Notes under the pieces: generated by a model
Told to the model about the DNA's origin: nothing
The model's input: the letters and a program-made list of their open reading frames with translations, nothing else
Databases searched by the model: none
DNA from: Prevotellaceae bacterium UBA4361
GTDB lineage: Bacteria; Bacteroidota; Bacteroidia; Bacteroidales; Bacteroidaceae
Direction of reading: 5' to 3'
Assembly (NCBI GenBank): GCA_002393575.1
Contig: DGSN01000032.1
Location: forward strand, 44,783-108,782
DNA: 64,000 nt
Part shown: positions 19 to 48,620 of the stretch, piece by piece
Position numbering within the stretch: position 1 is the first letter of the stretch
How the letters are laid out: each line of letters opens with the position of its first letter
Translations under genes and position numbers: made by a program

Positions 19-1353
19 ATGAACCATAGATTGAGAAGGCTATGGGGCCTGTTACTTTTATTTCCTGCCTCTATGTGCTGGGCTCAGCAGGAGAGCAACA
101 ATCAGCTGGACGTGAACTTGCAGATGCTGGGGCACGGCGAAATGCGTTTTGGTGGGTTGGACGACAATGCCAGCGGAAGTGAAAGTGGTGCGACCGACAA
201 GAATCATGCCTACTTCCTGATGGGGCGTACCCGCCTGAGCATCGACTATAAGCGCATGGGCTTGGAAACGAAGGTTGTTGCTCAGCATTCTGGTGTGTGG
301 GGACAGAAGGGACAGGGCAATTTCAACCTCTACGAAGCTTGGGCAAAGTTTAGCTTGAAGAACGGGCTTTTCGGGCAGATTGGCCGTCAGGCTCTGGCAT
401 ACGATGATGAACGTATCATCGGTACGAACGACTGGGCTATGGCTGCGCTCTCTCACGATGTTCTCAGATTAGGCTATGACGGTCCACAGCACAAGGCTCA
501 TGCGATTTTTGCTTTCAACCAAAACGCTGAGAACACCCACGGCGGTACGTACTACAAGGATGGTGCACAGCCCTACAAGACGATGCAAACTATCTGGTAT
601 CATTTCGATGTGCCGAAGTTTCCTCTGGGAGCCTCGCTCTTGTTCATGAACATCGGTATGCAAGGTGGCACGAAGGAAGGCTATGGCGATGATGAGCCGA
701 GGACTATTTACCAGCAACTGTTAGGTACATACATCAAGTTCAGCCCTGGAAGGTTTTCAGCCGAAGCATCCTACTATCATCAGTTAGGCAGAAGCGAGGA
801 CGATCTCAAGATTGACGCATGGATGGCAAGTGTGCGTGGCAGCATGCAAGTGACGAGACAACTCAAGGCTGTGGCGGGCTTCGACTACCTGAGCGGTGAC
901 AAATACTTTGCCGTTCCAGCCAAAGGGCATTTTGGTGTCACGAGGCACGAAGTAATCAAGGGTTTCAATCCCATCTATGGTTCTCACCACAAGTTCTACG
1001 GCATGATGGACTTTTTCTATGTCAGGACCTACCTCAATGGTTTCACTCCTGGATTACAGAACTTGTATGTGGGCGGCGATTATGCCCCTATCGACAAAAT
1101 AAATTTGAAATTGCGATACCACTATCTGGCTATGGCAACCAAACTGGCTGGCATTGACCAGACGTTGGGACATGATGTGGATTTCGAAGCGTCATACCAA
1201 TTCGCTAAAGATGCTCGTTTCTCGTTGGGTTTCTCCTACATGCTTGGTACGGAGAGCATGGAGAAGCTGAAACGCGCATCCAAAGACAACAACCTGAAGT
1301 GGGCATGGTTCTCTCTGCTCATTTCTCCACGTATCTTCACGACCAAATGGTAG
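19..1353 (+). CDS. Outer-membrane beta-barrel protein, alginate-export (AlgE)-like porin family
   Basis: 444-aa ATG-initiated ORF. Signal peptide (LWGLLLLFPASMCWAQQ), amphipathic beta-strand pattern and aromatic C-terminus (FTTKW). The motif GRQALAYDDERIIGTNDWA resembles the GRQ..YGD.RLIG..DW signature I associate with the alginate-export family. Called by recognition, not search. Confidence 0.6.
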   Translation: MNHRLRRLWGLLLLFPASMCWAQQESNNQLDVNLQMLGHGEMRFGGLDDNASGSESGATDKNHAYFLMGRTRLSIDYKRMGLETKVVAQHSGVWGQKGQGNFNLYEAWAKFSLKNGLFGQIGRQALAYDDERIIGTNDWAMAALSHDVLRLGYDGPQHKAHAIFAFNQNAENTHGGTYYKDGAQPYKTMQTIWYHFDVPKFPLGASLLFMNIGMQGGTKEGYGDDEPRTIYQQLLGTYIKFSPGRFSAEASYYHQLGRSEDDLKIDAWMASVRGSMQVTRQLKAVAGFDYLSGDKYFAVPAKGHFGVTRHEVIKGFNPIYGSHHKFYGMMDFFYVRTYLNGFTPGLQNLYVGGDYAPIDKINLKLRYHYLAMATKLAGIDQTLGHDVDFEASYQFAKDARFSLGFSYMLGTESMEKLKRASKDNNLKWAWFSLLISPRIFTTKW

Positions 1354-1409
1354 AGAAACGTGAGTTCGATATAAATAAATATGTTCTTTTGTAGTGCCTC
1401 TACGAGGCA

Positions 1410-1498
1410 GAAATCTAACAAATCTATTCAAAATCTCTCAAAATCTCATTCATATTTGTAAGATTTGAGAAGATTTGTGAGATTTCTCGCGAAGCGAC
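1410..1498. repeat. Imperfect low-complexity hairpin (words AAATCT / AGATTT) followed by a GCGAAGCGAC motif, upstream of the NRPS gene
   Basis: aaatctaacaaatctattcaaaatctctcaaaatctca...agatttgagaagatttgtgagattt. GCGAAGCGAC at 1489-1498 recurs next to the family A hairpins (15218-15230, 48532-48545, 48588-48601). Confidence 0.6.
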
Positions 1499-1567
1499 TC
1501 CTTATACCGAACTGACGTTAGAGAAGGAATTCACCTACATTAATAAGAGCAATAATCACTTTAAACC

Positions 1568-2830
1568 ATGAAACAAATAGTTCCTTTATCAAAAACACAA
1601 TATGGCATCTATGTAGAAAGCGCAAGCCATATAGGAGAAATCTGTTACAATCTGCCTTATTTATATGCTCTTGATAAGAGTCTTGATGCAGAACGCGTAT
1701 GCAGGGCTGTAGAAACTGCAGTGAAAGCCCATCCCACTCTCTTCACTCGCATCATCCTCACGGACGATGGCGAACCTATGCAAACCATCGGTGAAGACAT
1801 CGATTCATGGACGCTCCATGTGGAGGACATTGACAACATCGACACCGTGAAATCCTCTTTGGTAAAGCCGTTCAATCTATACGATGACCTCCTGTTCCAC
1901 ATTCGCCTTTTACGCGATGCCCAACATCTCTATCTATTCATCGACTATCACCACATCATCGTTGACGGCACTTCCATGAAATTGCTTCTCAACGACATGG
2001 ACAAAGCTTATCATGGCGAGGCTCTTGCTCCAGAGCAAATCACGTTGGCAGAAGTGAGTGAGGATGAACAGGCGAAACGTCAGTCCCCAGCATTGGAGGA
2101 AGCCAAGCAATGGTATGCCAAGACTTACGATTGCGGAGATGTTTTCACCCAACTCATTCCCGACCTTGAAGAAGCGACTGTCACAGAAGGTAGCCAGCTC
2201 CACACTATATCCATCAACACTGAGCGAGTTGAGTCTTTCTGCAAGGAAAATGGTGTTTTCAAAAGCACACTCTTCACCATGGCATACGCCTTTCTGCTTG
2301 CAAAATTCAACAATGAGCCAGAATCGCTGTTCACCACCGTTTACAATGGTCGCAACGACAAGCGTTTGAGCAATACGGTTGGCATGTTTGTCAAGACGCT
2401 GCCCGTTTATGCCAAGTTCGACAATGACACATCGGTGCTCGACTACTTGAAAGCAGGGCAGGAGCAAATCAGCGGATGCCGACAGCACGACATCTATTCT
2501 TTCAGCGACCTCATGGAAGACCTCAACTTACAGAGCAATTCCATGTTCGCATGGCATGCCACACTCTTTGCCGACGACCAATTTGGTGACAAGCCAATGG
2601 AGGCTGAACGCATCGGCAACAGCACACTCGATGTTTCACTTTACCTAAAAGCCTTCATCAGAGATGGACATTTTCAGGTGAAGGCAGAATACCGTTCAAA
2701 CGAATATTCCCAGGCACTCATCAGCCAGTATCTGGAAAGTTATGAAGCAGTGATTGAAGGTATGCTTTCCTGCCAATATCTGCGCGACATAGACATAGCT
2801 ACCGCTTCTCAGGTTCAGACACTCGACTCT
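1568..2830 (+). other. NRPS condensation domain C1 (N-terminal, precedes the first A domain)
   Basis: HHIIVDGTS active-site motif at nt 1949-1975. About 420 aa lie before the first A domain. Boundaries approximate. Confidence 0.8.
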
Positions 2831-5800
2831 TTCAATCAGAACGATGTCGATTACGACTCCACTCAGACCATCGTTTCCCTGTTCCTTCAGCAAGCGAAAG
2901 CAACTCCCGACAACATTGCTGTTGTTTTCAAGGAAAAACGCTACACGTACCAGCAAGTGGATGCCATCAGCAACAGCATTGCATCCTGCCTGGCAGGGAA
3001 AGGACTGGGGCAAGGCGATGTCGTTTCGGTACTGATACCACGTTGCGAATGGATGGCAATTGCATCGTTGGGTATTCTGAAAGCAGGATGTGCCTATCAA
3101 CCGCTCGACCCAAGTTATCCGAAGGAGCGACTGAATTTCATGATGCAGGATGCCAATGCACGTTTGCTTCTGAGTCTCGACGAAGCTATTCTGTCCAAGC
3201 AGCAGGCAAAGGAAGGTGAGGGATGGCTCGACGGTCTCGACATTCTGAACGAGAGGAATATCCCTGTCTTAGACCTCAATGAATTCAACCCACAGGACTA
3301 TGACCAGCATTTCGCTTCGGCTACGGTTTCGCCCGACTCACTCTTCATTTTGCTCTACACATCCGGTTCCACAGGTATTCCTAAGGGATGCCAACTCACA
3401 CATGGAAACCTGGTTGCGTTCTGCCACTGGTACCAGAGATTCTACTCCTTGCAGCCAGAACACAACGTGGCAGCATACGCCAGCTACGGTTTCGATGCTT
3501 GCATGATGGACCTGTACCCAGCACTCACTTGCGGTGCTACGGTTCACATCATTCCAGAAGAAATACGTCTCGACCTCATTGCCCTCAACAATTATTTTGA
3601 GCAGAATGCCATCACCCATTCGTTCATGACAACCCAAGTGGGCTATCAGTTTGCTTCGAGCATCGAGAACCACTCGCTCCTCAACCTCTCAACAGGTGGT
3701 GAGAAATTGGCATCTATCGTTCCGCCACAAGGTTACCGCTTCTTCAATGTCTATGGCCCTACGGAGTGTACCATCTTCACAACCACTTTCCAGGTGGAGA
3801 AGAAAATGAAAGAAATTCCAATCGGCAAAGCACTCGACAACATGCGTCTCTACGTGGTTGACACTAAAGGCCATCGACTGCCAGTCGGTGCATCGGGAGA
3901 ACTGTGGGTGTCAGGACCACAAGTGAGTCGCGGCTATCTGAATCGACCAGAGAAGACAGCAGAAGTGTATATCGGCAATCCATTCGTTGACTCCGACGCA
4001 AGCGACAAGAAATATGCACGTGTCTATCGAACGGGCGACATCGTTCGTTTCCTCCCCGATGGAAACATACAGTTTGTCGGTCGTCGCGACGGACAGGTGA
4101 AGATTCGCGGATTCCGCATTGAGCTGAAAGAAGTGGAAGCGGTCATTCGCGATTTCCCTGGCATCAAGGATGCAACCGTGCAAGCCTTCGACGAGGATGG
4201 TGGCGGAAAGTTCATAGCTGCCTACATCGTTAGCGACCAGCAAATCGACATCGATGCTCTCAACAATTTCATTCTCGACCAGAAACCACCTTACATGGTG
4301 CCAGCCGTGACCATGCAGATTGATGCCATTCCGCTGAACCAGAACCAGAAAGTGAACAAGCGTGCTTTGCCAAAGCCTGAGAAAAAGGCAACGGCTGCAG
4401 AAGAAGTATCGAATGTGCCAATGAACGTACTCGAAGAAGAACTCCACAGCATGGTTGCAGCCATCGTCAATAATGAGGACTTCGGAGTAACAACCGTTCT
4501 CGGATATGCAGGTTTCACCTCCATCTCAGCCATCAAACTGGCTGTGCAAGTGAATAAGCGATATGACGTGATGCTCGATGCCAAGTCGCTCGTCAAGACA
4601 GGTACTCTGCAAAGCATTGAAAACGAGATTCTGAAGAAGATGCTTTTCCAGGACACTGACAGCACCGTCAAGAAAGAATCAACACAAGCACAAGATGCAC
4701 CAACCAGCGCACCTCTCTCATACGCACAGACGGGAGTCTATTTCGATTGCTTGAAGAACCCTGCATCCACGCTCTACAACATCCCATATCTGCTCACATT
4801 CCCTTCAGGTACAGACCCGCAGAAGCTGGCTGATGCTGTTGAGAAAGCAGTGAAGAGCCATCCAGAGCTGAGCGTCCACTTCACCACCAAGGGTGACACC
4901 ATCGTTCAGACCACTGAAGGCAGCATTGACATCTCGTTCAGCAAGGGCATAGGAGGCACGATGTCCGAAATGAGCGAAGCACAACTCAGCGAATACAAAA
5001 ACGAATTTGTTCGTCCGTTCAACTTGCAGAAAGCCCCACTCTATCGCTTCGAAATTGTAAGGACAGAACAAAACGTCCATCTGCTCATGGACATTCATCA
5101 TCTCGTTTTCGATGGTGGCTCTGCTGACCTTCTCATTCGTCAGATTTGCTCCCTCCTCGAAGGACAAAACATTGAACAGGAAACTTACACCTATCTCCAC
5201 TTCGTCACCGACCAGCAGGCAGCTGAGGATACGGATGAATTCCGTGCAGCAAAAGATTTCTTTGCCGAAAAACTGCAAACCTGTGAAGGTGCTAGCGAAA
5301 TACCTGCCGACCTCCACTCCGATGAATTAGCCGAGCATGAAGGAGTCATCGGCGAGGCTGTCTGTCCAACCGATTTCGACCGCATCAACGCCTTCTGCCG
5401 TGAAAAGGAAATCACTCCAGCCCATCTGTTCCTCGCTGCAACAGCTTACGTTGTTTCCCGCTACACCAACAACCGCGAGGTCTATCTCTGCACTGTCAGC
5501 AGCGGACGTAGCAACTTGAAGATTGCTGACACCGTGGGCATGTTTGTCAACACACTTGCCCTTGGACTGAACATCAGCGATGTCAGTGTGTCCGAATTCC
5601 TGAAGCAAACGAGTGAAACTTTCGACCAAACACTTCGCCACGAGGATTATCCATTCGTGCGCATCGCATCCGACTACGGTTTCCGTCCAGCCATTGCCTA
5701 TGCTTACCAAGTGGGTGTCCTTTCTCAATACACTGTCGGTTCGAAGCCTGTTGGTCAGGAACTGCTGGAACTCAACGTTCCGAAATTCAAAATCAACATC

Positions 5801-8800
5801 AAGATAGAGTCGCGAGGTGTCGTTGTGCAGTACGACGACTCACTCTATTCTGCTCGTCTCGGCACCGCACTTGCAGAGAGCATTGCTGCCGTAGCAGAAC
5901 GAATCACGCAGAATCCACAAGGCAAGATTCGCCACCTCTCCATCATCAGCAACAATCAGGAAGAAGAGCTCAGCCACCTGCGACAGACAGCCACAGGAGA
6001 TGCTCCATTCCAGTTCTTCCACGAATGCATCGCCCACTTCGCACAGACCCAACCTGAGCACGACGCATTAGTGGCTATCGATGCTTCTTATAACTATCAG
6101 CAGATGGACGATGCCACCAACCGTATAGCAATGGCTCTCCGCAAGCGTGGCGTTCAGGAGCGCGACCGAGTGGCACTGCTCCTCCCGCGTACCAGCCGAC
6201 TCATTCTGTCCCTCTTCGGTGTACTGAAAGCAGGTGCCGCTTACATTCCATGCGACCCAGAATATCCTGCCGACCGTGTGAAACTCATCCTTGAGGACAG
6301 CGAAGCACGCTACATCATCACAACCGCCGACCGCATCGACTCCGTTCCAGCAGGAAAGGGCATCGACGTGGAACAGTTGTTGGAAGAACAGACCGATGCC
6401 CCATTTGCTGCACCATCCATCACCCCTGACGACCTCGCCTACCTCATCTACACCAGCGGTTCCACAGGCAGACCAAAGGGAGTTATGCTCCGTCACGAAG
6501 GCATTTGCAACTACCTTTACGGCCATCCAGCCAACGTGTTCGCTCATGGTGTGCTCACTGATGCCCGTCGCATTCTCAGTGTCACCACCATTTCCTTCGA
6601 TGCAGCACTGCAAGACATCGGCATGGCATACTTCAACGGCAAGACACTCGTACTCGCCACCGAAGAACAAGCCAACAACCCTCTCGACCTGGCACAACTC
6701 ATCAACGAGCAACACATCAACATGGTGTCGGGCACACCATCGCGCTGGCAAACATGGCTCACCAGCGACGACTTCTGCCAAGCCATCAGCCACGTTGACA
6801 TCTGCCGTGCAGGTGGAGAGAAATTCTCCGACCAGCTTCTCAGCCAGATGCGCAGTGTTACTCATGCACGCATCTTCAACTGTTATGGTCCTACAGAAAT
6901 CACCGTTGCATCCAACAACAAGGAACTCACACATGCCAACATCGTGACAGTGGGCCGACCACAACTGAATGTCAAGGAATTCATTGTCGATGCCGACGGC
7001 AACGAACTGCCTGTTGGTGTGGTAGGTGAACTCTATATCGGTGGACGAGGCGTAGCTCGAGGCTACAACAACCTCGACGACATGACTCGCGAACGCTTCA
7101 TCACCTACTGCCCTGTGCGCACAGACTGCTCTACGGCAATCCGCATCTACAAGTCGGGCGACTATGCCAAGTGGCTTCCTGATGGCGACGTAGTCATTCT
7201 CGGACGAACCGACCACCAAATCAAACTGCGTGGACTCCGCATCGAATTGGGCGAAATCGAAAACGTCATGCTCAAAGTCGATGGCATCAAGAAAGTCGTT
7301 ATACTGATTCGCAAACTCAACGGCAAGGAGCACCTCTGCGCATACTACACCGCCGACCACGAAATCGCACCAGAAAACCTGAAAGCCGAAATCTCAAAGA
7401 GCCTCACACAGTACATGGTGCCAACAGCATACCTGCAACTTCCAGAAATGCCAATGACACCAAACGGCAAGACAGACGTGAAGGCACTCCCTGAACCACA
7501 GCTCGCCAGCACATCAGCATACGTTGCCCCTGCCAACGACACGGAACGCAGCTTCTGCGACATCTTCGCTTCCATCCTGCAAATGGAGCGAGTGGGAGCA
7601 ACCGACAACTTCTTCGAATTGGGAGGCACCTCCCTCGTTGTCACACGCGTCATCATCGAAGCAGACAAGGCTGGAATGCACGTAGCTTACGGCGATGTCT
7701 TCGCCAACCCAACCCCTCGCCAGCTTGCACGTTTGCTAACAGGAGATGCTGACAGCGAACAGACCGACGAAGTGGCAGCTTTCGACTACTCAGCCATCGA
7801 TGCTATCCTTCAGCACAATACACTCGACAACTTCCGCCAAGGACAACGCCAAAATTTGGGCAACGTACTTCTCACGGGAGCCACAGGCTATCTCGGCATC
7901 CACATCCTCCACCGACTCATCCAGTCTGATGCACAGATTATCTATTGCCTCGTGCGTGGCAAGAGCCAAGAGAAAGCAGAGAGCCGCTTGCGCACACTTC
8001 TCTACTACTACTTCGCCAATGCCCACAAGGACCTCTTCGGCACACGACTCCACGTCATTATCGGCGACGTAACAGCTGACATCAGCCAACTCACTTCCCA
8101 CCTCGCACCAACAACCATCAACACCGTCTTCAACTGCGCAGCCATTGTCAAGCACTTCAGCGAAGGCACAGAGATAGAAGACGTGAACATCGGAGGTGCA
8201 CAGCGATGCGTAGATTTCTGCATACAGACAGGCGCACAACTCGTTCATGTATCTACAGCCAGCACCCGAGGACTTTGGGCAGGCGACATCAAGAGCGACA
8301 CCTTCACCGAGCAACGACTCTACATGGGACAATACCTCGGCAACAAGTACATCTACTCCAAGTTCATGGCAGAGCGACTCATCCTCGATGCAGTGGCACA
8401 TCACGGACTCAACGCCAAAATCATGCGCGTCGGCAACCTCGCCGCACGTTCCACCGACGGAGAGTTCCAGGCAAACTTCTCCACCAACTCCTTCATGGGG
8501 CGCATCAGAGTTTACAACATGCTCGGTTGCTGTCCACATGGCATGAGAAACAAGCGCGTCGAGTTCTCCCCAATCAACGAAGTCGCCGATGCCATCGTCC
8601 TACTCGCATCCGCACCGCAAAAGTGTACCGTCTTCCATCCTTACAATATCCACACCCAGTTCCTTGGCGACGTACTCACCGGACTCACAAGCGTGGGCGA
8701 AAAACTCCGCACAGCCGACGGTTCTACAACCGTAGGCATTCGCTTCGTAGAACAAGAGGAATTTGCAGAAGCTATGGAAGCAGCCAAGTCCGACCCACAG

Positions 8801-8992
8801 AAAGCACGTCAGATGGCATCACTACTCGCCTACCAAGACATGGCACACGGTCAGAAGACCACCGATGTCAACCGCGACAACGACTACACCACCCAGGTGC
8901 TCTATCGTCTCGGCTTCGCCTGGTCGCCAACATCGTGGGACTATGTCGAGCGTATGCTCACAGCCATCGGTGGCTTCGGCTTCTTTGAGTAA
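1568..8992 (+). CDS. Bimodular non-ribosomal peptide synthetase, domain order C-A-T-C-A-T-R (terminal thioester reductase)
   Basis: Uninterrupted 2474-aa ORF. C-domain motifs: HHIIVDG (nt 1949-1969) and HHLVFDG (nt 5096-5116). A-domain cores: LLYTSGSTGIPKG/NVYGPTE/YRTGD/GRRDGQVKIRGFRIEL and LIYTSGSTGRPKG/NCYGPTE/YKSGD/GRTDHQIKLRGLRIEL. Carrier serines in GFTSIS (nt 4520-4522) and LGGTSL (nt 7631-7633). C-terminal LLTGATGYLG Rossmann motif plus YIYSKFMAE (Y-x-x-x-K). Confidence 0.95.
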   Translation: MKQIVPLSKTQYGIYVESASHIGEICYNLPYLYALDKSLDAERVCRAVETAVKAHPTLFTRIILTDDGEPMQTIGEDIDSWTLHVEDIDNIDTVKSSLVKPFNLYDDLLFHIRLLRDAQHLYLFIDYHHIIVDGTSMKLLLNDMDKAYHGEALAPEQITLAEVSEDEQAKRQSPALEEAKQWYAKTYDCGDVFTQLIPDLEEATVTEGSQLHTISINTERVESFCKENGVFKSTLFTMAYAFLLAKFNNEPESLFTTVYNGRNDKRLSNTVGMFVKTLPVYAKFDNDTSVLDYLKAGQEQISGCRQHDIYSFSDLMEDLNLQSNSMFAWHATLFADDQFGDKPMEAERIGNSTLDVSLYLKAFIRDGHFQVKAEYRSNEYSQALISQYLESYEAVIEGMLSCQYLRDIDIATASQVQTLDSFNQNDVDYDSTQTIVSLFLQQAKATPDNIAVVFKEKRYTYQQVDAISNSIASCLAGKGLGQGDVVSVLIPRCEWMAIASLGILKAGCAYQPLDPSYPKERLNFMMQDANARLLLSLDEAILSKQQAKEGEGWLDGLDILNERNIPVLDLNEFNPQDYDQHFASATVSPDSLFILLYTSGSTGIPKGCQLTHGNLVAFCHWYQRFYSLQPEHNVAAYASYGFDACMMDLYPALTCGATVHIIPEEIRLDLIALNNYFEQNAITHSFMTTQVGYQFASSIENHSLLNLSTGGEKLASIVPPQGYRFFNVYGPTECTIFTTTFQVEKKMKEIPIGKALDNMRLYVVDTKGHRLPVGASGELWVSGPQVSRGYLNRPEKTAEVYIGNPFVDSDASDKKYARVYRTGDIVRFLPDGNIQFVGRRDGQVKIRGFRIELKEVEAVIRDFPGIKDATVQAFDEDGGGKFIAAYIVSDQQIDIDALNNFILDQKPPYMVPAVTMQIDAIPLNQNQKVNKRALPKPEKKATAAEEVSNVPMNVLEEELHSMVAAIVNNEDFGVTTVLGYAGFTSISAIKLAVQVNKRYDVMLDAKSLVKTGTLQSIENEILKKMLFQDTDSTVKKESTQAQDAPTSAPLSYAQTGVYFDCLKNPASTLYNIPYLLTFPSGTDPQKLADAVEKAVKSHPELSVHFTTKGDTIVQTTEGSIDISFSKGIGGTMSEMSEAQLSEYKNEFVRPFNLQKAPLYRFEIVRTEQNVHLLMDIHHLVFDGGSADLLIRQICSLLEGQNIEQETYTYLHFVTDQQAAEDTDEFRAAKDFFAEKLQTCEGASEIPADLHSDELAEHEGVIGEAVCPTDFDRINAFCREKEITPAHLFLAATAYVVSRYTNNREVYLCTVSSGRSNLKIADTVGMFVNTLALGLNISDVSVSEFLKQTSETFDQTLRHEDYPFVRIASDYGFRPAIAYAYQVGVLSQYTVGSKPVGQELLELNVPKFKINIKIESRGVVVQYDDSLYSARLGTALAESIAAVAERITQNPQGKIRHLSIISNNQEEELSHLRQTATGDAPFQFFHECIAHFAQTQPEHDALVAIDASYNYQQMDDATNRIAMALRKRGVQERDRVALLLPRTSRLILSLFGVLKAGAAYIPCDPEYPADRVKLILEDSEARYIITTADRIDSVPAGKGIDVEQLLEEQTDAPFAAPSITPDDLAYLIYTSGSTGRPKGVMLRHEGICNYLYGHPANVFAHGVLTDARRILSVTTISFDAALQDIGMAYFNGKTLVLATEEQANNPLDLAQLINEQHINMVSGTPSRWQTWLTSDDFCQAISHVDICRAGGEKFSDQLLSQMRSVTHARIFNCYGPTEITVASNNKELTHANIVTVGRPQLNVKEFIVDADGNELPVGVVGELYIGGRGVARGYNNLDDMTRERFITYCPVRTDCSTAIRIYKSGDYAKWLPDGDVVILGRTDHQIKLRGLRIELGEIENVMLKVDGIKKVVILIRKLNGKEHLCAYYTADHEIAPENLKAEISKSLTQYMVPTAYLQLPEMPMTPNGKTDVKALPEPQLASTSAYVAPANDTERSFCDIFASILQMERVGATDNFFELGGTSLVVTRVIIEADKAGMHVAYGDVFANPTPRQLARLLTGDADSEQTDEVAAFDYSAIDAILQHNTLDNFRQGQRQNLGNVLLTGATGYLGIHILHRLIQSDAQIIYCLVRGKSQEKAESRLRTLLYYYFANAHKDLFGTRLHVIIGDVTADISQLTSHLAPTTINTVFNCAAIVKHFSEGTEIEDVNIGGAQRCVDFCIQTGAQLVHVSTASTRGLWAGDIKSDTFTEQRLYMGQYLGNKYIYSKFMAERLILDAVAHHGLNAKIMRVGNLAARSTDGEFQANFSTNSFMGRIRVYNMLGCCPHGMRNKRVEFSPINEVADAIVLLASAPQKCTVFHPYNIHTQFLGDVLTGLTSVGEKLRTADGSTTVGIRFVEQEEFAEAMEAAKSDPQKARQMASLLAYQDMAHGQKTTDVNRDNDYTTQVLYRLGFAWSPTSWDYVERMLTAIGGFGFFE
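2867..4381 (+). other. NRPS adenylation domain A1
   Basis: Core motifs A3 LLYTSGSTGIPKG, A4 FDACMMD, A5 NVYGPTE, A7 YRTGD, A8 GRRDGQVKIRGFRIEL, A10 NQKVNKRALP. Boundaries approximate. Confidence 0.9.
4415..4640 (+). other. NRPS thiolation (PCP) domain T1
   Basis: LGYAGFTSISAIKL, with the presumed phosphopantetheine-attachment Ser at nt 4520-4522. This is a variant of the usual GG(D/H)S(L/I) motif. Confidence 0.75.
4709..5950 (+). other. NRPS condensation domain C2
   Basis: HHLVFDGGS at nt 5096-5122, preceded by a polar linker (QDTDSTVKKESTQAQDAPTS). Boundaries approximate. Confidence 0.85.
6010..7495 (+). other. NRPS adenylation domain A2
   Basis: Core motifs LIYTSGSTGRPKG, FDAALQD, NCYGPTE, YKSGD, GRTDHQIKLRGLRIELGEIE, PNGKTDVKALP. 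Boundaries approximate. Confidence 0.9.
7536..7739 (+). other. NRPS thiolation (PCP) domain T2
   Basis: DNFFELGGTSLVVTRV, with Ser at nt 7631-7633. Confidence 0.85.
7868..8989 (+). other. NRPS terminal thioester reductase (R/TD) domain, SDR fold
   Basis: NAD(P)H-binding LLTGATGYLGIHIL and catalytic YIYSKFMAE. About 370 aa following T2, with no TE domain. Confidence 0.85.
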
Positions 8993-9187: not shown

Positions 9188-9247
9188 TAATAATCCCAAC
9201 TTATTCTTTATTCTTCAGTCTTCATTCTTCACTCTCACTTCCCCATC

Positions 9248-10600
9248 ATGAACTCCGATCTGAATAAACAGTTCTACAACTACCTCTGGGCGTACATCCT
9301 TGTTGCCCTGTCAGGATGCCTCGGCAACGTAGTCGATGGCATCATCGTCGGCAACCTCATCAGCGAAGACGGCGTCAGCGCCATCAACCTCTCCAAGCCC
9401 ATCAACCAGTTCATATTCACACTCCACCTCCTCATCAATGCAGGAGCAGGAATGCTCGTGGCATACGCATTAGGAAAGAAGAACATAGCCGAAGCACAAC
9501 GCTACTTCGTCCGAGCCCTCACCCTCAGCACCAGCATCGGCATACTGCTCGCCATTGGCGGAGGTATCATCTTCCTCACACAAACAGCCAACCTCCTCTG
9601 CAGCAACGATCAGATACGTCCGCTCGCAACCGACTACATGCAGATACTCCTGCTTGGCAACCCTGCCTTCATCCTCCTGTGGGGACTCTCTACGATGGTT
9701 GGAGCCGATGGCAGTCCCAAACTCGTCTCCTTAGCCGTCATCATCGACAACGCAGCCAACCTATGCCTCGACATCGTCTTCATCCAGTGTATGGGTTGGG
9801 CCATAGCTGGTTCCTCCGCAGCAACCGTTGTGGGCCACCTCATCGGCATCGCCATCCTACTCAACCATTGGAGAAAACCAGGCGTGGCACAACTACGACT
9901 CAGCATCAAGCCCATTCCATCATCCGAACAGAACCAGCAACAAGACACACTCCTCACCTCCTGGCGACAGATAATCTCCCAAGGCGCACCCCTCGCCATT
10001 GCCTCCATCAGCCTCACCCTCCTCATGCTCTCTGCCAACACCATTGTGCTCGACACCCTGGGACGAACAGGCATCTTCGCCTTCGCAGTCTGCATGAACC
10101 TCCTGCAAATCTACAACCTCTTCGTTTCAGGCACCTGCCAAACACTCCAGTCCCTCGGAGCCATACAAGTAGGGAAAGGAAATGCCGACGGATTGCGACA
10201 AGTGATACGGAAAGCCTTCCGCTTCATCACCGTATCCATGACCATCACCTGCATCCTCGTCTGGATTTTTTCCACAGCCATCGTCCAACTCTTTGGAGCC
10301 AACGAACCAGCTTTCATCGCAGAGGGAAACCATGCACTGCGCATCTTTGCCCTCAGCTTCATCCTCTTCTGCTACATCTACGTGTTGATGATCGTGTATA
10401 AGCTCCACAAGCAAGACAACATGGCATTGTTCATCTCCTTTGCCCTCTCCCTCACCGTCATTCCAGTCCTTTGGGTCATGTCACGATGGCAACCCGCCTA
10501 CCTCTGGTACAGCTACCTCATTGCCTACATCATCGAAGGCATCGCCATCTTCATGATCCACAAAATGACCATTACTTCAAAAGTGAAAAAAGGGGCTTAG
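9248..10600 (+). CDS. MATE-family efflux transporter (MOP superfamily)
   Basis: 450 aa, about 12 hydrophobic helices in two halves. The N-terminal region (LGNVVDGIIVGNLISEDGVSAINLSKPI...AYALGKKNIAEAQRYF) fits the MATE pattern. Called by recognition. Confidence 0.65.
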   Translation: MNSDLNKQFYNYLWAYILVALSGCLGNVVDGIIVGNLISEDGVSAINLSKPINQFIFTLHLLINAGAGMLVAYALGKKNIAEAQRYFVRALTLSTSIGILLAIGGGIIFLTQTANLLCSNDQIRPLATDYMQILLLGNPAFILLWGLSTMVGADGSPKLVSLAVIIDNAANLCLDIVFIQCMGWAIAGSSAATVVGHLIGIAILLNHWRKPGVAQLRLSIKPIPSSEQNQQQDTLLTSWRQIISQGAPLAIASISLTLLMLSANTIVLDTLGRTGIFAFAVCMNLLQIYNLFVSGTCQTLQSLGAIQVGKGNADGLRQVIRKAFRFITVSMTITCILVWIFSTAIVQLFGANEPAFIAEGNHALRIFALSFILFCYIYVLMIVYKLHKQDNMALFISFALSLTVIPVLWVMSRWQPAYLWYSYLIAYIIEGIAIFMIHKMTITSKVKKGA

Positions 10601-10636
10601 TATTTAGAGTTGGTAAGTTAAAAGTTAATAGTGAAA

Positions 10637-10742
10637 AAGACCCTCCCCAACTATAGACCCCTCCAACTCCCCTGTGAGGGGAAAGAAATAACCATCCGGG
10701 TGACTACCCCCTCCCTCACAGGGAGGGCTGGGGAGGGTCTTT
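10637..10742. mobile_element. MITE/REP-like element bounded by AGACCCTCCCC ... GGGGAGGGTCT inverted termini (family B), copy 1
   Basis: Terminal inverted repeats at 10637-10648 and 10730-10742. Internal hairpins cccc-tgtga-gggg (about 10669-10681) and ccctccc-tcaca-gggaggg (10709-10727). The 3' 45 nt are near-identical to 60742-60786. Confidence 0.6.
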
Positions 10743-10753
10743 CCCACTTCCCC

Positions 10754-11323
10754 ATGTACCTCACCACCCGCATCACACAGTTCGACCTCGCCGCTGCACT
10801 CGCCACAGTCAGTGAACAACGGCGAGAGTACGCAATGCGCTATCATCAAGAGCACGACCGTCGGCTATCCGTTGCCGCATACCAACTGCTGCAACAAGCC
10901 CTCCGTGAGGAGTACGACATCAACGAAGCCCCCTGGTTCGACTTCGGCAAGCACGGAAAACCCATCCTGCGCGACCACCCCGACATTCATTTCAGCCTAA
11001 GCCATTGCCGCTATGCAGCAGCCTGTGCCGTTGACAACCAACCCGTAGGCATCGACGTGGAAAGCCTCGACAACTACGACCCATCACTTCTCCCTGCCAC
11101 CATGAACGAAGCAGAACAAGCCGAAATACACCGTTCGCCCAACCCGTCCATCACCTTTCTCCGCCTATGGACCATGAAAGAGAGTTACCTGAAAACCACT
11201 GGCGAGGGCATAGCCAATGACATGCGAACAGTACTCACCAACCCATCATTCCATCCTCAACGCTACCAATTCCACACCACTATCTACCCCCAATTTGTTT
11301 GCACGCTATGCAAACAAAACTAA
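10754..11323 (+). CDS. 4'-phosphopantetheinyl transferase, Sfp type
   Basis: Motifs GKHGKPIL, FSLSHC, VGIDVE, WTMKESYLK. I place the start at ATG 10754, because the GTG-initiated track ORF (10631) would translate straight through the family B repeat. Confidence 0.85.
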   Translation: MYLTTRITQFDLAAALATVSEQRREYAMRYHQEHDRRLSVAAYQLLQQALREEYDINEAPWFDFGKHGKPILRDHPDIHFSLSHCRYAAACAVDNQPVGIDVESLDNYDPSLLPATMNEAEQAEIHRSPNPSITFLRLWTMKESYLKTTGEGIANDMRTVLTNPSFHPQRYQFHTTIYPQFVCTLCKQN

Positions 11324-11330: not shown

Positions 11331-11413
11331 GTAAGTCCCCATTCCCGTAAGAGTCGTTCCCCACTCCCGTACGAGTCGTTCCCCATTCCCGCATGAGTCG
11401 TTCCCCATTCCTG
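11331..11413. repeat. Tandem direct repeat, about 22-bp unit x about 3.8 (GAGTCGTTCCCCATTCCCGTAC)
   Basis: gtaagtccccattcccgtaa / gagtcgttccccactcccgtac / gagtcgttccccattcccgcat / gagtcgttccccattcctg. Begins 8 nt after the PPTase stop codon. Confidence 0.85.
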
Positions 11414-11430
11414 TTTTTAACATCTATATT

Positions 11431-11508: not shown

Positions 11509-14500
11509 TTACTTGATGAACACCTTCTTACCGTTGATAATGTTCATACCCTTCTGTGGTGCGTTGAGACGCTGACCTTGGATGTTGTAGATGGTTTGCT
11601 GACCAGCGTTGCCACTAAGGTTAGCAATACCTACAGTTTCATCGTTGCCGAGATAGAAGAGCTGGAAGTCATCGTAGATGAGCCAGTCGTTGCCGATGGC
11701 TGCCGTCTTGCGGAGACCGATAGTTGCGTTGCCACCTGCCTTCACGTAGATGCGTACTGAGTTGTTGTAAGCCTCTGGGCTCTGGAGCAGACGGTTGTAG
11801 AATCCAGCCATAGAGGAAGGATAGTAATATACGTTGTCGCCATCCTGTACGCGGGTATCGAATGGATAAGCTGGTGATTCGAGGTTGATGTTCTGGAGGC
11901 AGTCGATAAGGTCGTCTTCGTTGAGCACAGTCTCTTCGCCTTCGAGGATGCAGATGGTGCCATCCCAGTCGGTTACGTAACCTGCATTCACAGCTTCTTC
12001 ACTGTCCTTTGCGTTCCACCACTTGTCGAAGCTTGGAGTGGTCCACTTGCCGTCGCAAACAGACTTCACGTAGTTGGAGTTTTCTGTACCTCCGCTGCTT
12101 GCATAGATGATGGCGTTGTGGTTTTCCCAATTGTCGATGTCGGCATTTGCTGCCACCCACCAGTTGTAGTAAGGACCGCTTGTTGCATTGCCTACATCGC
12201 CAGCGTCGCGATAGCAAGCACGTGCGCGGAACTCGTAGAGTCCTTCAGGAAGGTTCTTGATGGTCTGGTGAATATCGAATGGGGAAGCATTCCAGATTTC
12301 AGCGTTCTGACGTCCGTAAGTGTTGACGGTAGGAGTAGCGCCTTCGGAAGTCCAGCCTACGGTTGGTCCTTCTGCCAAAGCTGGGTTGACGAGAAGGCTT
12401 GTCACTTCAACAGGATTGTCGAGCGTAGCCTTGTCAGCATTGAGTTCTGCAAAGATAGCCTTGTTGATGACTGCGCTGAGAGCGGACTCGTAGCGGTCGA
12501 GTTCTTCGATGGTAGCATAGTGGGTAGCGAGGTCAGCTGCCTGGGTAGCGATGGTAGTGTTTGCCTCGTCTGTGTTGTAAGAACGTGCCTTGTCAACAGT
12601 TCTCATGTAAGACTCGTAAGCTGCATAAACCTTGTTGGCTTCTTCAGCATCCTTGTATGTGTCGTTTTCGCCATTACCCAAGTTGAGTGAGAACTGGAGT
12701 GCTGGTTCGATGATCGCATATTCTTCAGACTTATTGGAGTAGTTCTCCTGCATGGTGGCATACTTGCCAGGGAGGTCGAATGCAGTGGTGATGCGAGCAG
12801 CTTCTGAAGCGTACTTGTCTGCTTCCTTGACGATTTCGATAGCTTGGCTGTAAGCCTCTGGGCTGGTGATTGGCATGGAGATGGTGGCGAGGATGTCGTC
12901 AACGGCCTTGCGGTCGCCTGCCCATGTGAGGGAGCCTGCATACTTATTGTTGAGTTCTGCGATGCGGTCGTTCACAAGCTTAGAATAGTCTGGTGATTCG
13001 CCGTAGTAGCGGAATGTGACACCAGTGTTGAGTGCCATTGAGTTGTGGTGATAACCGAGCGTAACGGTGCCTCCTGTTACCTGAAGGAAGTCGGTAGTGA
13101 CATCTGTCCAGTCGCCACGACCATAGTAGCTCCAGTAGCCCTTGGATGTGGTGTTGTTGGCTTGAACCATCTTGTCGCCACACTGCAGGAATACATACTG
13201 GTTGAGGTCGGCTTCATTGCCTTCGTTAGCAAATGCGAACATACGGCCTTCGATAGTGTAGAATCCGTCAGGGAGATTGGTAACGACCTGCTTCACCCAA
13301 ATGTCACCAGTGTTAGGACCTGCGCACCAACCAGTGTAGATGCCGCAATAGCCTTTCAGCCACTGCACGTTGTTCTGCATACCGCCAATCCAACCGTTGA
13401 AGTTGTTCTGGAAAATCCATCGATTCTCGGCTTCCTTGCTGGTGGTGTAATCGACTTTGTCTGCCAATGGAACAAGCCACTGGTTCTCGTCGTCATTCCA
13501 CTGTTGTGCAATTTCCACATTGCATTCGTCGTTTGGATGATGTGCGCCCCAGGTATCTTCAATCTCCTGTGGGAACTTGTACTCGCCATCGCGGAAGGTT
13601 GGTGTATATTCCTGGTTCACGAACCAAGGGCAGGAGATGACGTTTGTCACGTCGATAAAGCCATCAGCGTTCTTGTCCTGAGAGAGTACGTAGTTGACAC
13701 GTGCCTGTGCGAGGGCATTGGCTGCGTCGAGGTAACCCTGAACGGAGAAGATGGTCTGTTCACCTTCGCCGTCACCCAGTGCTGACTTAGCAGTGGCGAT
13801 AGCAGCTTCAAGCTGTGCCTTTTCTGGATAGTCAGTCACTTGAAGGAGTCCTTCGCAAACGGTTACGAGGTAGTCCATGTTCTGAACCTTCACACGTGCC
13901 ACTTGGAAGTCTTCGATATAGCTGTTCACCAAGTCGAGAGCTGCATACACTTCATCGAGTGTGGAATTGTTTGGGTCAACGTCGATTTCTCCAACGAGCT
14001 CCTCAAGAAGTGCTGCCAAAGAAGGATAGCTGTCGCCTATCACGTCAGCAAGATTTTCAGCAGCATCGACAGCTGTGTTGAACTTAGTAAGTGCTACTAC
14101 CTTCTTTGCATCGTCGTCGTAGTCACCTTCCCAAGTGATGCGGAAATTGTTCCACCATACCTGGTCTTGAGCTTGCTCTACTTGCTTGGAGATACCAATG
14201 CGGATGGTCATTTCCTCTGGCACAGCAAAGAGGACTTCGTTTTCTCCGAACTTGCCATTTTCGAAGAAAGCGGTAGCACCGTCGTGGCAAGAAGGAGCAT
14301 AGTAGGTGTTGCCATCCTTAGATGTCTGCTTCTGGTCGTTCTGCCAACCATCATGCTGATAATAGGATTCTGTAGATTTTGACCCCCAGAGGGACATAAT
14401 CTTGGTTTCATAGCGCTCATCGCCAACCTGCACATAGAGGTAGGCGTTCTGAGTAGGTGTGCCTGCATCCCAGTTGCGGAAAGAGACGTTTGCATCTCCT

Positions 14501-14841
14501 TCACGATAGAGTGCCTGAACGGTGAGGTTGTAAAGACCTGCAGGAATGGTGAATTCCTGATAAACGTCCCACTGAGGAATGTTGTAAGTTCCCCAAGTGA
14601 CAGCAGGGCGTTCATAATCAGAGTTAGCGAACTCCCAACGAGTATCAGAGCCAGAGGTACCAGCCTGATAGTCGAAGCCCTTCCAAGCAGGATTGTCCAT
14701 ATCCTCTTGGTCACCGGTTGTGGCTTTCCAGTTCAGCAGATTGGTTACGTCCTGACCCTCTTTCCAACCAGAGGTGTCCTGAGCGTATGCACCCAATGCC
14801 AAACCAGCCAAAAGCGAAAGCGTAAAGACTCTTTTTTTCAT
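11509..14841 (-). CDS. Large secreted protein of unknown function with a T9SS (Por) C-terminal sorting domain
   Basis: Signal peptide MKKRVFTLSLLAGLALGAYAQD. C-terminal ...IYNIQGQRLNAPQKGMNIINGKKVFIK is typical of T9SS CTDs. Three related modules share LP(A/D/E)GxYxh motifs, separated by helical Ala/Glu/Leu-rich linkers. Confidence 0.8.
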   Translation of the reverse strand: MKKRVFTLSLLAGLALGAYAQDTSGWKEGQDVTNLLNWKATTGDQEDMDNPAWKGFDYQAGTSGSDTRWEFANSDYERPAVTWGTYNIPQWDVYQEFTIPAGLYNLTVQALYREGDANVSFRNWDAGTPTQNAYLYVQVGDERYETKIMSLWGSKSTESYYQHDGWQNDQKQTSKDGNTYYAPSCHDGATAFFENGKFGENEVLFAVPEEMTIRIGISKQVEQAQDQVWWNNFRITWEGDYDDDAKKVVALTKFNTAVDAAENLADVIGDSYPSLAALLEELVGEIDVDPNNSTLDEVYAALDLVNSYIEDFQVARVKVQNMDYLVTVCEGLLQVTDYPEKAQLEAAIATAKSALGDGEGEQTIFSVQGYLDAANALAQARVNYVLSQDKNADGFIDVTNVISCPWFVNQEYTPTFRDGEYKFPQEIEDTWGAHHPNDECNVEIAQQWNDDENQWLVPLADKVDYTTSKEAENRWIFQNNFNGWIGGMQNNVQWLKGYCGIYTGWCAGPNTGDIWVKQVVTNLPDGFYTIEGRMFAFANEGNEADLNQYVFLQCGDKMVQANNTTSKGYWSYYGRGDWTDVTTDFLQVTGGTVTLGYHHNSMALNTGVTFRYYGESPDYSKLVNDRIAELNNKYAGSLTWAGDRKAVDDILATISMPITSPEAYSQAIEIVKEADKYASEAARITTAFDLPGKYATMQENYSNKSEEYAIIEPALQFSLNLGNGENDTYKDAEEANKVYAAYESYMRTVDKARSYNTDEANTTIATQAADLATHYATIEELDRYESALSAVINKAIFAELNADKATLDNPVEVTSLLVNPALAEGPTVGWTSEGATPTVNTYGRQNAEIWNASPFDIHQTIKNLPEGLYEFRARACYRDAGDVGNATSGPYYNWWVAANADIDNWENHNAIIYASSGGTENSNYVKSVCDGKWTTPSFDKWWNAKDSEEAVNAGYVTDWDGTICILEGEETVLNEDDLIDCLQNINLESPAYPFDTRVQDGDNVYYYPSSMAGFYNRLLQSPEAYNNSVRIYVKAGGNATIGLRKTAAIGNDWLIYDDFQLFYLGNDETVGIANLSGNAGQQTIYNIQGQRLNAPQKGMNIINGKKVFIK

Positions 14842-15070: not shown

Positions 15071-15244
15071 AAAAGAAGAAAATGAAGAATGAAAATTAAA
15101 TGAAAAATGGAGAATGGAGATTGAAGAATAATAAAATGAAGAATGAAGAATGGATTTTACCCTGCTCTTTGGATGAGTAATTTTCATTCTTCATTCTTCA
15201 TTTTTCATTCTTCATTCGGAGCGAAGCGTCTATTCTTCATTTAT
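15071..15244. repeat. Family A hairpin element (GAATGAA heptamer arms with a conserved loop), copy 1
   Basis: Arms aatgaagaatgaagaatgg / cattcttcattcttcatt. Loop attttaccctgctctttggatgagtaatttt. Followed by ggagcgaagcgtc. Sits 7 nt downstream of the atpG stop (minus-strand sense). Confidence 0.85.
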
Positions 15245-15250
15245 TAATGA

Positions 15251-16120
15251 CTACTCTACTTTGCCGCCCATGATGTCGATGAGTTCGTTAGTGATGGCTT
15301 GCTGACGTGTTTTGTTGTAGAGGAGGGTGAGTTCTTTGAGCAAGTCATTGGCATTGTCATCGGCTGTTTGCATGGCAAGCATACGAGCTGCGTGTTCGGA
15401 GGTGAAGGAATCAAGAAGTGTACCATAGACTTCTGCATTCAACAGACGAGGATGAAGGGCTTGAACGAGTTCATCGGCACTTGGCTCAGTGAGGAAAGGA
15501 TTGTCGGCTTCCACTTTTCCGACTTTCGGAGGGGATAATGTGAGTTCCTTGACGGTAACAACTTGACTACCCATCGACTTGAAATGGTGAAAGACGAATT
15601 CGACAGTATCTATACTACCCTCCTGATAAAGCTGAAGTATCTGGACGGTGAACTGCGACACGGCTTCGAACGGGTCACCTTTCTCCAATTTGTCCATCAA
15701 ACCGACAAAGTCGGTGATGCATGGTTGCTGTTCTTTTTTCAACTCATGGTTGATTTTTTTCCCAACAGGAATCAACTGGAGCTTGGCTCCTCGGCGTGTC
15801 CATTCATCAATTCGTTTGAAAGTGGCTTTCGAGAGGTTGCTATTGAATGCTCCGCATAGTCCGCTATTGCTGGCTATGGGAATGAGCAACACACTCTTCT
15901 GCTTTTTCTCGTCTGCTGAAGTGCTTACCTCCTCATCGGTAGCTGCACAACCGAGGTCGTTGAGGATGGAACGCAATTGCTCCATATAGCACAGGAAATT
16001 CTCAGTCATGCCCTGTGTGCGATGCAACTTGGCAGATGCTATCATACGCATGGCAGATGTGATTTTCTGCGTGGATTGTATGGACGCTATGCGGCTTTTT
16101 ATCTCTTTGAGTGAAGGCAT
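15251..16120 (-). CDS. atpG: F-type ATP synthase subunit gamma
   Basis: MPSLKEIKSRIASIQSTQKITSAMRMIASAKL... is a typical gamma N-terminus. Start moved to ATG 16120 from the track start at 16144. Confidence 0.9.
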   Translation of the reverse strand: MPSLKEIKSRIASIQSTQKITSAMRMIASAKLHRTQGMTENFLCYMEQLRSILNDLGCAATDEEVSTSADEKKQKSVLLIPIASNSGLCGAFNSNLSKATFKRIDEWTRRGAKLQLIPVGKKINHELKKEQQPCITDFVGLMDKLEKGDPFEAVSQFTVQILQLYQEGSIDTVEFVFHHFKSMGSQVVTVKELTLSPPKVGKVEADNPFLTEPSADELVQALHPRLLNAEVYGTLLDSFTSEHAARMLAMQTADDNANDLLKELTLLYNKTRQQAITNELIDIMGGKVE

Positions 16121-16176
16121 AAAACTTCGAAAGTTAAAAATCAAAAACTAAAAGGTGAAAAGATTATTCAACCTCA

Positions 16177-16216
16177 ACCATAATAATACCTTCCCAATGG
16201 CTGTGATTGTTATGGT
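16177..16216 (-). other. Intercistronic hairpin between atpA and atpG
   Basis: 11-bp stem accataataat/attgttatggt with one G-U pair and an 18-nt loop, inside a 95-nt gap made of AT-rich words. Confidence 0.5.
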
Positions 16217-16238
16217 CTTAATTTTTAATTTTTATTTA

Positions 16239-25294: not shown

Positions 25295-25313
25295 ATTCAC
25301 TTTTTTCAAATTT

Positions 25314-25399
25314 ATGAATGAAGAATGAAGAACGTAGAATGAAGAATGTATTTTACTCTGCTCATGGAATGTGTAATTTTCATTCTTCACTCTTCATTT
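25314..25399. repeat. Family A hairpin element, copy 2
   Basis: gaatgaagaatgaagaacgtagaatgaagaatg - tattttactctgctcatggaatgtgtaatttt - cattcttcactcttcatt. Lies 12 nt downstream of the GH43 stop at 25411. Confidence 0.85.
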
Positions 25400-25410
25400 A
25401 TAAAACTTCA

Positions 25411-48446: not shown

Positions 48447-48463
48447 ATAATATATAATTTACA

Positions 48464-48620
48464 ATTAAGAATGTAGAATGAAGAATAAATTTTTACCCTG
48501 CTCATTCGATGAGAAATTTTCATTCTTCATTCGGAGCGAAGCGACTATTCTTCATTCTTCATTTAAGCGTAGCGCTCATTCTTCATTCGGAGCGAAGCGA
48601 CCATTCTTCATTCTTCATTT
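48464..48620. repeat. Family A hairpin element, copy 3, with an internally duplicated right arm
   Basis: aagaatgtagaatgaagaat - aaatttttaccctgctcattcgatgagaaatttt - cattcttcattcggagcgaagcgac(t/c)attcttcattcttcatttaag. The last block is present twice (48521-48566 and 48577-48622). The MBL stop codon at 48608-48610 lies inside the arm. Confidence 0.85.

Follow-up and report, generated by a model that had tools for sequence, protein, structure and literature searches.

What would a rumen bacterium make with a peptide synthetase that opens with a condensation domain and closes with a reductase? The question is raised by a nonribosomal peptide synthetase (NRPS) gene near the left end of 64,000 nucleotides of contig DGSN01000032.1 from Prevotellaceae bacterium UBA4361 (the window, by which the whole of this 64-kb stretch is meant). 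The encoded protein has two modules of condensation (C), adenylation (A) and carrier (T) domains, followed by a terminal thioester reductase (R) of the short-chain dehydrogenase/reductase (SDR) type, in the order C-A-T-C-A-T-R; the domains are called C1, A1, T1, C2, A2, T2 and R below (Table 1). The initial annotation of the locus took this order to predict an N-capped dipeptide released by reduction. The prediction that the NRPS makes an N-capped dipeptide aldehyde stands somewhat better than even. The most likely course of events is that such an aldehyde is made and exported, and a role as a protease inhibitor is probable.

How would the product be made? In the proposed pathway, an adjacent Sfp-type 4'-phosphopantetheinyl transferase (PPTase) would prime T1 and T2. 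A1 would put an alpha-amino acid, probably a hydrophobic one, on T1, and A2 would put a second alpha-amino acid on T2. C1 would then transfer a carboxylic-acid unit, supplied in trans, to the amino group of the residue on T1, and C2 would make the peptide bond. The resulting N-acyl dipeptidyl thioester would be released by R and NAD(P)H as an aldehyde, with a second reduction to the alcohol being possible. Since its N-terminus would be capped, the aldehyde could not cyclize to a pyrazinone. A MATE pump would move the product over the inner membrane and an AlgE-like barrel over the outer membrane, while a dCache-SpoIIE(PP2C)-HATPase_c_2 sensor and a STAS protein, encoded just outside the window, would control the system.

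The assembly line and its mode of release

Is the synthetase complete? In the open reading frame (ORF) of the NRPS, Pfam recognizes Condensation, AMP-binding and PP-binding domains twice each, with an AMP-binding_C next to either AMP-binding domain, and NAD_binding_4/Epimerase at the C-terminus, all with E-values between 1e-159 and 7e-14. Domain limits were set by probing with the window's own domains, and this mapping agrees with Pfam on the order of two full modules and a reductase that had originally been read from the motifs. The leading C domain, with its intact HHIIVDG ahead of any A or T domain, is also where it had been placed. A stop codon at 1562-1564 closes the frame immediately before the ATG, and the gene upstream encodes a different protein, so that C1 is the true N-terminus and there is no hidden loading module. 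No more than 5 residues lie ahead of the first C-domain core motif, which leaves no room for an N-terminal docking peptide. At the other end, both motifs attributed to the terminal SDR-type reductase were located, LLTGATGYLG at residues 2101-2110 and YIYSK at residues 2261-2265.

Across 108 sequences of the family, no substitution occurs at the catalytic positions of either HHxxxDG motif, at either carrier serine or in the reductase triad; the TGxxGxxG NAD(P)H motif of R is nearly invariant. The mean identity per domain ranges from 67 to 90%, with mean pairwise values of 0.83-0.90 for A1, A2, T2 and R, 0.78 for C2 and 0.67 for C1, the lowest. Even in C1, the divergence is far from decay. The intact conserved motifs thus predict a complete, functional dimodular assembly line.

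Does R release an aldehyde or an alcohol? Among solved structures in the PDB, the best match of R is 6VTJ, the PCP-R of Mru_0351 from Methanobrevibacter ruminantium (9e-64), followed by AusA-R (4e-35), MxaA-R (2e-15) and Mtb-R (7e-9). The aldehyde-forming AusA-R is therefore the second-best solved match and the nearest relative with a characterized product. R is predicted to be redox-competent from its NAD(P)H motif and its Thr/Tyr/Lys triad, and no loss of triad residues, which the initial annotation had named as a way for its reading to fail, was seen in the alignment. According to the authors of the 6VTJ structure, it is not yet understood what determines how far R domains reduce, and the extent of reduction is not readable from the sequence (PMC8024701). 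It could be, then, that R reduces twice and yields an N-capped dipeptide alcohol in place of the reactive aldehyde, four-electron reduction being known for the terminal R domains MxaA-R and Mtb-R, which have the same fold and are both detectable homologs. R is much nearer to AusA-R than to either of these, however, and the characterized gut-anaerobe products of this architecture are aldehydes in the cited passages of PMC8518294. Twofold reduction is unlikely on these grounds, and release as an aldehyde is favored.

Which residues would be joined? For the reading of the A codes, the A3, A4, A5 and A10 core motifs served as anchors. (A MAFFT alignment of A1 and A2 with a GrsA segment was set aside as ambiguous between code positions 278 and 301.) A1 has Asp235, and its substrate should accordingly be an alpha-amino acid; its pocket is hydrophobic, with positions 322 and 331 varying in the family, and the residue is probably hydrophobic as well. 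The pocket of A2, on the other hand, is polar and cationic (Gln239, Arg299). Its register, with Ser278 and Arg299 included, matches HMMER alignments to both LgrA A domains, and the code is invariant in 107 of the 108 sequences at nine positions (with 278 shifted by one residue in the count). The residues R-G-C-V-A at positions 299-331 occurred in none of the R-terminated representative relatives examined by regular-expression extraction. Gln239 and Arg299 in the pocket point to an acidic or amide side chain, and Glu or Gln may be offered as a low-confidence guess; six positions are shared with a Gln code, DAQDLGVVDK, which is a lead only. C2 has LgrA C and TycC6 as its best PDB matches, and with an LCL-like C2 and no epimerization (E) domain, an all-L dipeptide is expected.

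The N-terminal condensation domain and the source of the proposed cap

What kind of condensation domain is C1? Like the classical starter (Cs) domains of the CDA-C1, RzmA-Cs and surfactin type, it has an N-terminal place, an intact HHxxxDG and a predicted role in N-acylation, but in sequence it does not resemble the solved Cs domains to any meaningful degree. Its best matches among solved structures are instead peptide-bond-forming LCL domains, with TycC6 on top at 93 bits, followed by BacC and LgrA. Neighbors were sought by an exhaustive search of 50%-identity representatives, using per-domain scores and a tree, while the whole-protein ranking of that search was dropped because it was confounded by multi-C proteins. 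Outside its own family, the best per-domain matches of C1 are mostly internal C domains, often those that follow the N-terminal A-T loading module of A-T-C-A-T-C-A-T-R proteins of ~2,950-3,000 aa from Rikenellaceae, Prevotella and Lachnospiraceae.

Taken at face value, these raw nearest-neighbor scores would make C1 a plain LCL-like domain with internal neighbors. This view was abandoned, since the tree, together with a correction of the labels, gave a first-position grouping. A neighbor-joining tree was built from 239 C domains, and the clade that holds C1 has 68 leaves, 55 of which are labeled as first-position. Seven further leaves turn out to be the first C of their protein as well, six of them following a divergent loading A domain and one starting at residue 51, which brings the clade to ~62/68 first-position after relabeling; in the clade of C2, 98/110 are internal. 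The association between clade and position has a Fisher p of 7e-26, not corrected for relatedness. Clustering of C1 with inactive or structural C domains, which the initial annotation had also raised as a danger to its reading, was not seen: C1 groups with first-position domains, and its HHxxxDG is present in 108/108.

The loading domains of the relatives provide a hint of what such C domains accept. Among 31 A-first relatives, 22 carry I, V, A or G where Asp235 would be expected in the loading A, and a few retain the Asp (e.g. P0143, P0183). Two Asp235-less loading A (A0) domains scored ~196 bits against a cut-off of 317 for the NCBI amino-acid adenylation model, and for A0 domains of this type (n = 2), acyl-CoA ligase models score about as well as the amino-acid adenylation model. 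A loading A without Asp235 thus probably loads a carboxylic acid, which would mean that C1-homologous C domains accept non-amino acyl donors. C1 would then belong to a lineage of initiation C domains that mostly take carboxylic acids lacking an alpha-amino group as donors, and C1 itself appears to be a non-classical initiation domain from an LCL-like lineage in which first-position domains form a group of their own. The first residue would accordingly be N-acylated by C1.

C-first relatives occur with two, three and more modules, and the family is modularly plastic. C-first trimodular (C-A-T)3-R relatives are among the top matches, the longer relatives P0004, P0020 and P0028 being of ~3,490 aa. 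There are also tetramodular A-T-(C-A-T)3-R relatives, in which the loading A has Ile or Val at 235 (P0007-P0013, ~4,070-4,140 aa).

Could C1 instead take an aminoacyl or peptidyl unit from a separate carrier or NRPS elsewhere in the genome, making the product an aldehyde of a tripeptide or longer? Its closest solved homologs do form peptide bonds, a few of the A-start relatives do keep the Asp235 of the loading A, and tri- and tetramodular versions do exist within the same family. However, the five residues before the C core leave no space for docking, most of the in-cis loading domains of the relatives lack Asp235, and no recurrent stand-alone A-T or second NRPS family was found in the conserved flanks within 7 kb of 80 loci (here and below, the best 80 related loci in a one-genome-per-species collection). 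Such a longer peptide is very unlikely.

Where, then, would the acyl unit of an N-capped dipeptide come from? In the absence of a loading module in the NRPS, the donor of C1 must arrive in trans. The initial annotation had seen no gene for an acyl-CoA ligase or acyl carrier protein (ACP) and had left the source of the cap open. Both points bear out: hidden Markov models (HMMs) derived from the NRPS found no other adenylate-forming or carrier-type ORF in the 64-kb window, and the conserved flanks of the 80 loci yield a single candidate supplier. This is a PaaK/F390-synthetase-like gene of ~450 aa that lies directly after the NRPS in 6/80 loci (e.g. at 15555-17153 in locus L066) and has a weak Pfam AMP-binding match of 31 bits; it is a candidate in-trans cap activator in those 6 genomes. 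For C1 of the window, acyl-CoA or acyl-ACP from primary metabolism would be the simplest donor. This would fit the formation of N-octanoyl-Met-Phe-H by a Clostridium cluster expressed in Escherichia coli, as related in the cited passages of PMC8518294.

It might also be supposed that C1 has no donor at all and is structural or vestigial, in which case the free dipeptide aldehyde would cyclize to a dihydropyrazinone or pyrazinone, as with AusA and the A-T-C-A-T-R gut family. A cassette that lacks a cap-supplying gene would be in keeping with this, as would the rank of C1 as the least conserved domain (0.67 mean pairwise identity versus 0.78 for C2) and the fact that the best whole-protein NCBIfam model is that of the aureusimine synthetase AusA. 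Yet a vestigial domain would hardly be expected to keep its HHxxxDG invariant and its full length across hundreds of species, and the C-first relatives with different numbers of modules argue that the N-terminal C is maintained for function. A vestigial C1 is thus quite unlikely.

A number of points weigh against the capped dipeptide aldehyde and have to be set beside the above. The product is a predicted one; the closest match of R, 6VTJ, comes without an assigned product; and one versus two reductions cannot be predicted from the sequence of R (PMC8024701). The A codes come from motif anchoring, not from a trained predictor. The cassette encodes no acyl-activating enzyme or ACP, and the PaaK-like adenylating gene is present in only 6/80 loci. 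As for C1, raw distance puts it equally near to internal and to other N-terminal C domains, and the exact first-position clade is weakly bootstrapped, with a Jaccard index >= 0.8 in only 4% of replicates; the first-position make-up of the clade is stable in the bootstrap, with a median of 82%. Finally, the match of C1 to the starter domain CDA-C1 has 17.9 bits and an E-value of 0.013 and covers the motif region only, and RzmA-Cs gave no match even at E <= 10. Compared with the 93 bits for the best LCL domain, these scores rule out C1 as a classical lipo-initiation Cs domain.

The conserved cassette and its surroundings

In which organisms is the NRPS found? The closest proteins carry labels of Prevotella sp. 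metagenome-assembled genomes (MAGs). More than 2,000 protein clusters match the NRPS at E <= 1e-20, and the best 120 of these are mostly full length, at ~75% identity. At least 572 stretches with an NRPS relative are present in the one-genome-per-species collection; the best 80 of these nearly all carry ruminant or rumen MAG labels and are assigned to Prevotellaceae or Bacteroidales, the hosts being cattle, sheep, goat, buffalo, yak and deer. A JGI metagenome contig (L081) has 97% DNA identity to the window and 99% identity in the NRPS protein and is from the same species as the window source. The initial annotation had framed the NRPS by the gut Clostridia, which is right as to the family of enzymes and wrong as to the organism, a ruminant-gut member of the Prevotellaceae by its nearest proteins and MAG labels. 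Literature searches found no characterized Prevotella or Bacteroidales product of this NRPS type. Prevotella NRPS clusters are among those that were differentially expressed with feed efficiency in a survey of rumen MAGs (PMC8241843).

What travels with the NRPS? The conserved unit consists of a sensor phosphatase/kinase, a STAS protein, an AlgE-like barrel, the NRPS, a MATE transporter and a PPTase. The barrel gene is directly upstream of the NRPS in 60/80 loci and the MATE gene directly downstream in 63-64/80, while the PPTase is present in 29-31/80, in most of those after the MATE gene. A STAS gene of ~100 aa lies upstream of the barrel on the same strand in 70/80 loci, and upstream of STAS, again on the same strand, is a sensor gene of ~735-775 aa in 63/80. 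These last two are just left of the window edge and were read in the 97%-identical contig L081, where Pfam assigns MCP-like_PDC/dCache, SpoIIE (PP2C) and HATPase_c_2 to the sensor and STAS to its neighbor. This partner-switching pair probably controls the cassette.

The barrel scores 27.5 bits with Pfam Alginate_exp, against a cut-off of 25.2, and its homologs are labeled 'alginate export family protein [Prevotella sp.]' in the source databases. Its AlphaFold2 (AF2) model has a predicted local distance difference test (pLDDT) score of 74.4 and consists of a signal helix and ~18 strands, and Foldseek puts AlgE on top, with an E-value of 4e-16 and a TM-score of 0.60-0.68. There are no alginate genes near the barrel, and its synteny with the NRPS makes it a candidate outer-membrane exit channel for the NRPS product.

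Table 1. Coordinates of the NRPS, its domains and the features next to it in the window
Feature	Position	Strand	Basis and remarks
AlgE-like outer-membrane beta-barrel ('alginate export family')	19..1353	+	Pfam, AF2, Foldseek; start maybe 73, as in L081
Strain-specific insertion of ~161 bp with long hairpin, between barrel and NRPS	1358..1518		Not in conserved cassette
NRPS gene, C-A-T-C-A-T-R, 2,474 aa	1568..8992	+	One unbroken ORF; Pfam and domain mapping
C1, N-terminal condensation domain, predicted N-capping (initiation)	1568..2839	+	aa 1-424; HHIIVDG aa 128-134
A1, adenylation, code DAMFSGVIFK	2885..4402	+	aa 440-945
T1, carrier	4430..4672	+	aa 955-1035; Ser985 within G(F/L)TSIS
C2, LCL-type elongation condensation	4700..5992	+	aa 1045-1475; HHLVFDG aa 1177-1183
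A2, adenylation, code DAQSRGCVAK	6020..7507	+	aa 1485-1980
T2, carrier	7535..7753	+	aa 1990-2062; Ser2022 within GGTSL
R, SDR-type thioester reductase	7850..8989	+	aa 2095-2474; TGATGYLG 2103-2110, Thr2230, Tyr2261, Lys2265
MATE efflux transporter, candidate inner-membrane exporter	9248..10600	+	Pfam MatE, NCBIfam MATE
Sfp-type 4'-phosphopantetheinyl transferase, AusB-like	10631..11323	+	Pfam ACPS, NCBIfam 4PPT_AusB 2e-27; start maybe ~10754, as called in L081

The gap between the barrel and the NRPS differs between close relatives. The insertion at 1358-1518 is absent from two 97%-identical contigs (L081 and L082), in which the gap is 48 bp. Its hairpin arms consist of (AAATCT)n/(AGATTT)n, with a minimum free energy (MFE) of -55.4 kcal/mol and a z-score of -4.86, and 1411-1518 of the window is an inverted 94% copy (~108 bp) of 2957-3063 in L081, in the STAS-barrel intergenic region. 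Perhaps it is a small intergenic element that moves or recombines.

Other repeats occur between the genes. Heptamer-run elements, composed of (GAATGAA)n and the complement (TTCATTC)n around a short core TTTTACCCTGCTC..., are present in both orientations at 9201-9246 (in the NRPS-MATE gap), 15099-15260, 25303-25425, 48442-48631 and 51787-51944. A GC-rich palindromic element, GGGTGACTACCCCCTCCCTCACAGGGAGGGCTGGGGAGGGTCTT, is found at 10698-10741, 60637-60675 and 60742-60788, that is, in repeats ~50 kb apart; with the later start of the PPTase, the first copy would fall between the PPTase gene and the MATE gene, and the other two form an inverted pair after a MetH-like gene. Immediately after the PPTase stop codon, at 11336-11414, there are three tandem copies of a 22-nt unit, TCCCCATTCCCGTAAGAGTCGT. 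An Rfam scan of the window gave no match. A scan for sigma-70 promoters and terminators found sites no more often than in shuffles, with a tool that excludes other promoter types. (Bacteroidota are counted among the organisms with promoter types outside such a scan.)

The remaining genes of the window appear to have little to do with the cassette. The 10 other large ORFs that were scanned are housekeeping genes, and a suspected second NRPS in the high-GC stretch at 56-62 kb proved to be FBPase and MetH. An ORF of 1,110 aa at 11509-14841 (minus strand) has a signal peptide and no Pfam match and adjoins the cassette only in the same species (L081); its tail resembles a type IX secretion system (T9SS) sorting domain, and it looks like an unrelated secreted protein. 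Neither this ORF nor the ATP synthase operon nearby is conserved with the NRPS in the 80 loci. Two adjacent glycoside hydrolase family 43 genes at 23408-26844 (minus strand), one of them fused to a BD-FAE esterase domain, probably degrade hemicellulose, which would fit a rumen Prevotella.

Precedents and possible meaning in the rumen

How new is such a product? The closest precedent is the family of gut NRPSs described by Guo et al. 2017, in particular its C-first subgroup (MIBiG BGC0001686), which has in common with the window NRPS the C-A-T-C-A-T-R order and the terminal SDR reductase, as far as the partial descriptions go. The BGC0001686 cluster is from Clostridium and gave N-octanoyl-Met-Phe-H by expression in E. 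coli, and it needed no dedicated acyl-activating gene in the cited passages of PMC8518294, a gene that the window cassette lacks as well. The two differ in that the Guo family is from Clostridium whereas the window NRPS is from a diderm member of the rumen Prevotellaceae, where an AlgE-like outer-membrane barrel and a partner-switching sensor pair come with the cassette; the A codes also differ.

A second gut pathway, rup (Schneider and Balskus 2018), provides a case in which N-acyl dipeptide aldehyde protease inhibitors were predicted from an NRPS and then shown by synthesis, according to the cited parts of PMC8518294 and PMC12327764. Its product, ruminopeptin, is an N-acyl Leu-Glu aldehyde from Ruminococcus bromii (the same passages of PMC8518294; PMC12327764). 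The producer belongs to another phylum than the window source, and the likeness is drawn from these partial descriptions. An acidic or amide side chain at the aldehyde position, such as the Glu of ruminopeptin, would suit the pocket of A2.

From the rumen itself, the NRPS mru0068 of M. ruminantium M1 was described as having two C-A-T modules and a terminal domain, given as a thioesterase in the main text and as a thioester reductase in the legend of Fig. S8 (PMC2812497). The C domain of its first module was taken by Leahy et al. 2010 as a hint of N-acylated peptides, and the gene has serine phosphatases, an anti-sigma antagonist and MatE as its neighbors (PMC2812497). The rumen habitat and this accessory set are shared with the window cassette. 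The M. ruminantium cluster, however, is archaeal and is described without an outer-membrane barrel (PMC2812497), which suggests that the barrel is a diderm-specific addition.

The AusA/AusB system of Staphylococcus aureus resembles the window NRPS in being dimodular, with a two-electron R domain and an AusB-like PPTase next door. AusA differs by its A-T-C-A-T-R order, without an N-terminal C domain, and its free dipeptide aldehyde cyclizes to pyrazinones (PMC8210680). Many dipeptide aldehydes otherwise share this fate, and an N-acyl tail has been proposed to stabilize them (PMC8210680). The prediction of a capped aldehyde is therefore sound but not new, being preceded by Guo et al. 2017, by ruminopeptin and by Leahy et al. 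2010.

What, then, does the locus add? Gut Clostridia had already shown this chemistry and this architecture, and both had been predicted for a rumen methanogen in 2010; what is gained concerns distribution, context and a testable hypothesis rather than a new principle. Earlier knowledge is extended by the identity of the organism and the range of the family, by the complete cassette with its candidate outer-membrane channel and partner-switching sensor, by evidence for C1 as a non-classical initiation domain with relatives that load in cis, and by an invariant, unusual A2 pocket. The members with in-cis carboxylic-acid loading and those with a bare C domain provide a natural comparison for the supply of the N-cap. 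A search for the product could reasonably start from this cassette, given that it is conserved across hundreds of species of rumen Prevotellaceae and that the residue at the reactive position is invariant.

As inhibitors of proteases, peptide aldehydes are potent and act in a covalent-reversible manner. Prevotella is dominant in the rumen, and the nitrogen efficiency of cattle is limited by ruminal proteolysis. One may imagine that hundreds of species of rumen Prevotellaceae make one specific capped dipeptide aldehyde under the control of a signal, with a fixed aldehyde residue, a cap that a non-classical lineage of initiation C domains draws from the primary pools of acyl-CoA or acyl-ACP, and an exit through the MATE pump and the barrel, and that it acts on a specific class of rumen protease at the level of the community; in all its particulars, this is doubtful. 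On this doubtful reading, the capped aldehyde would also bear on the breakdown of protein in the rumen.

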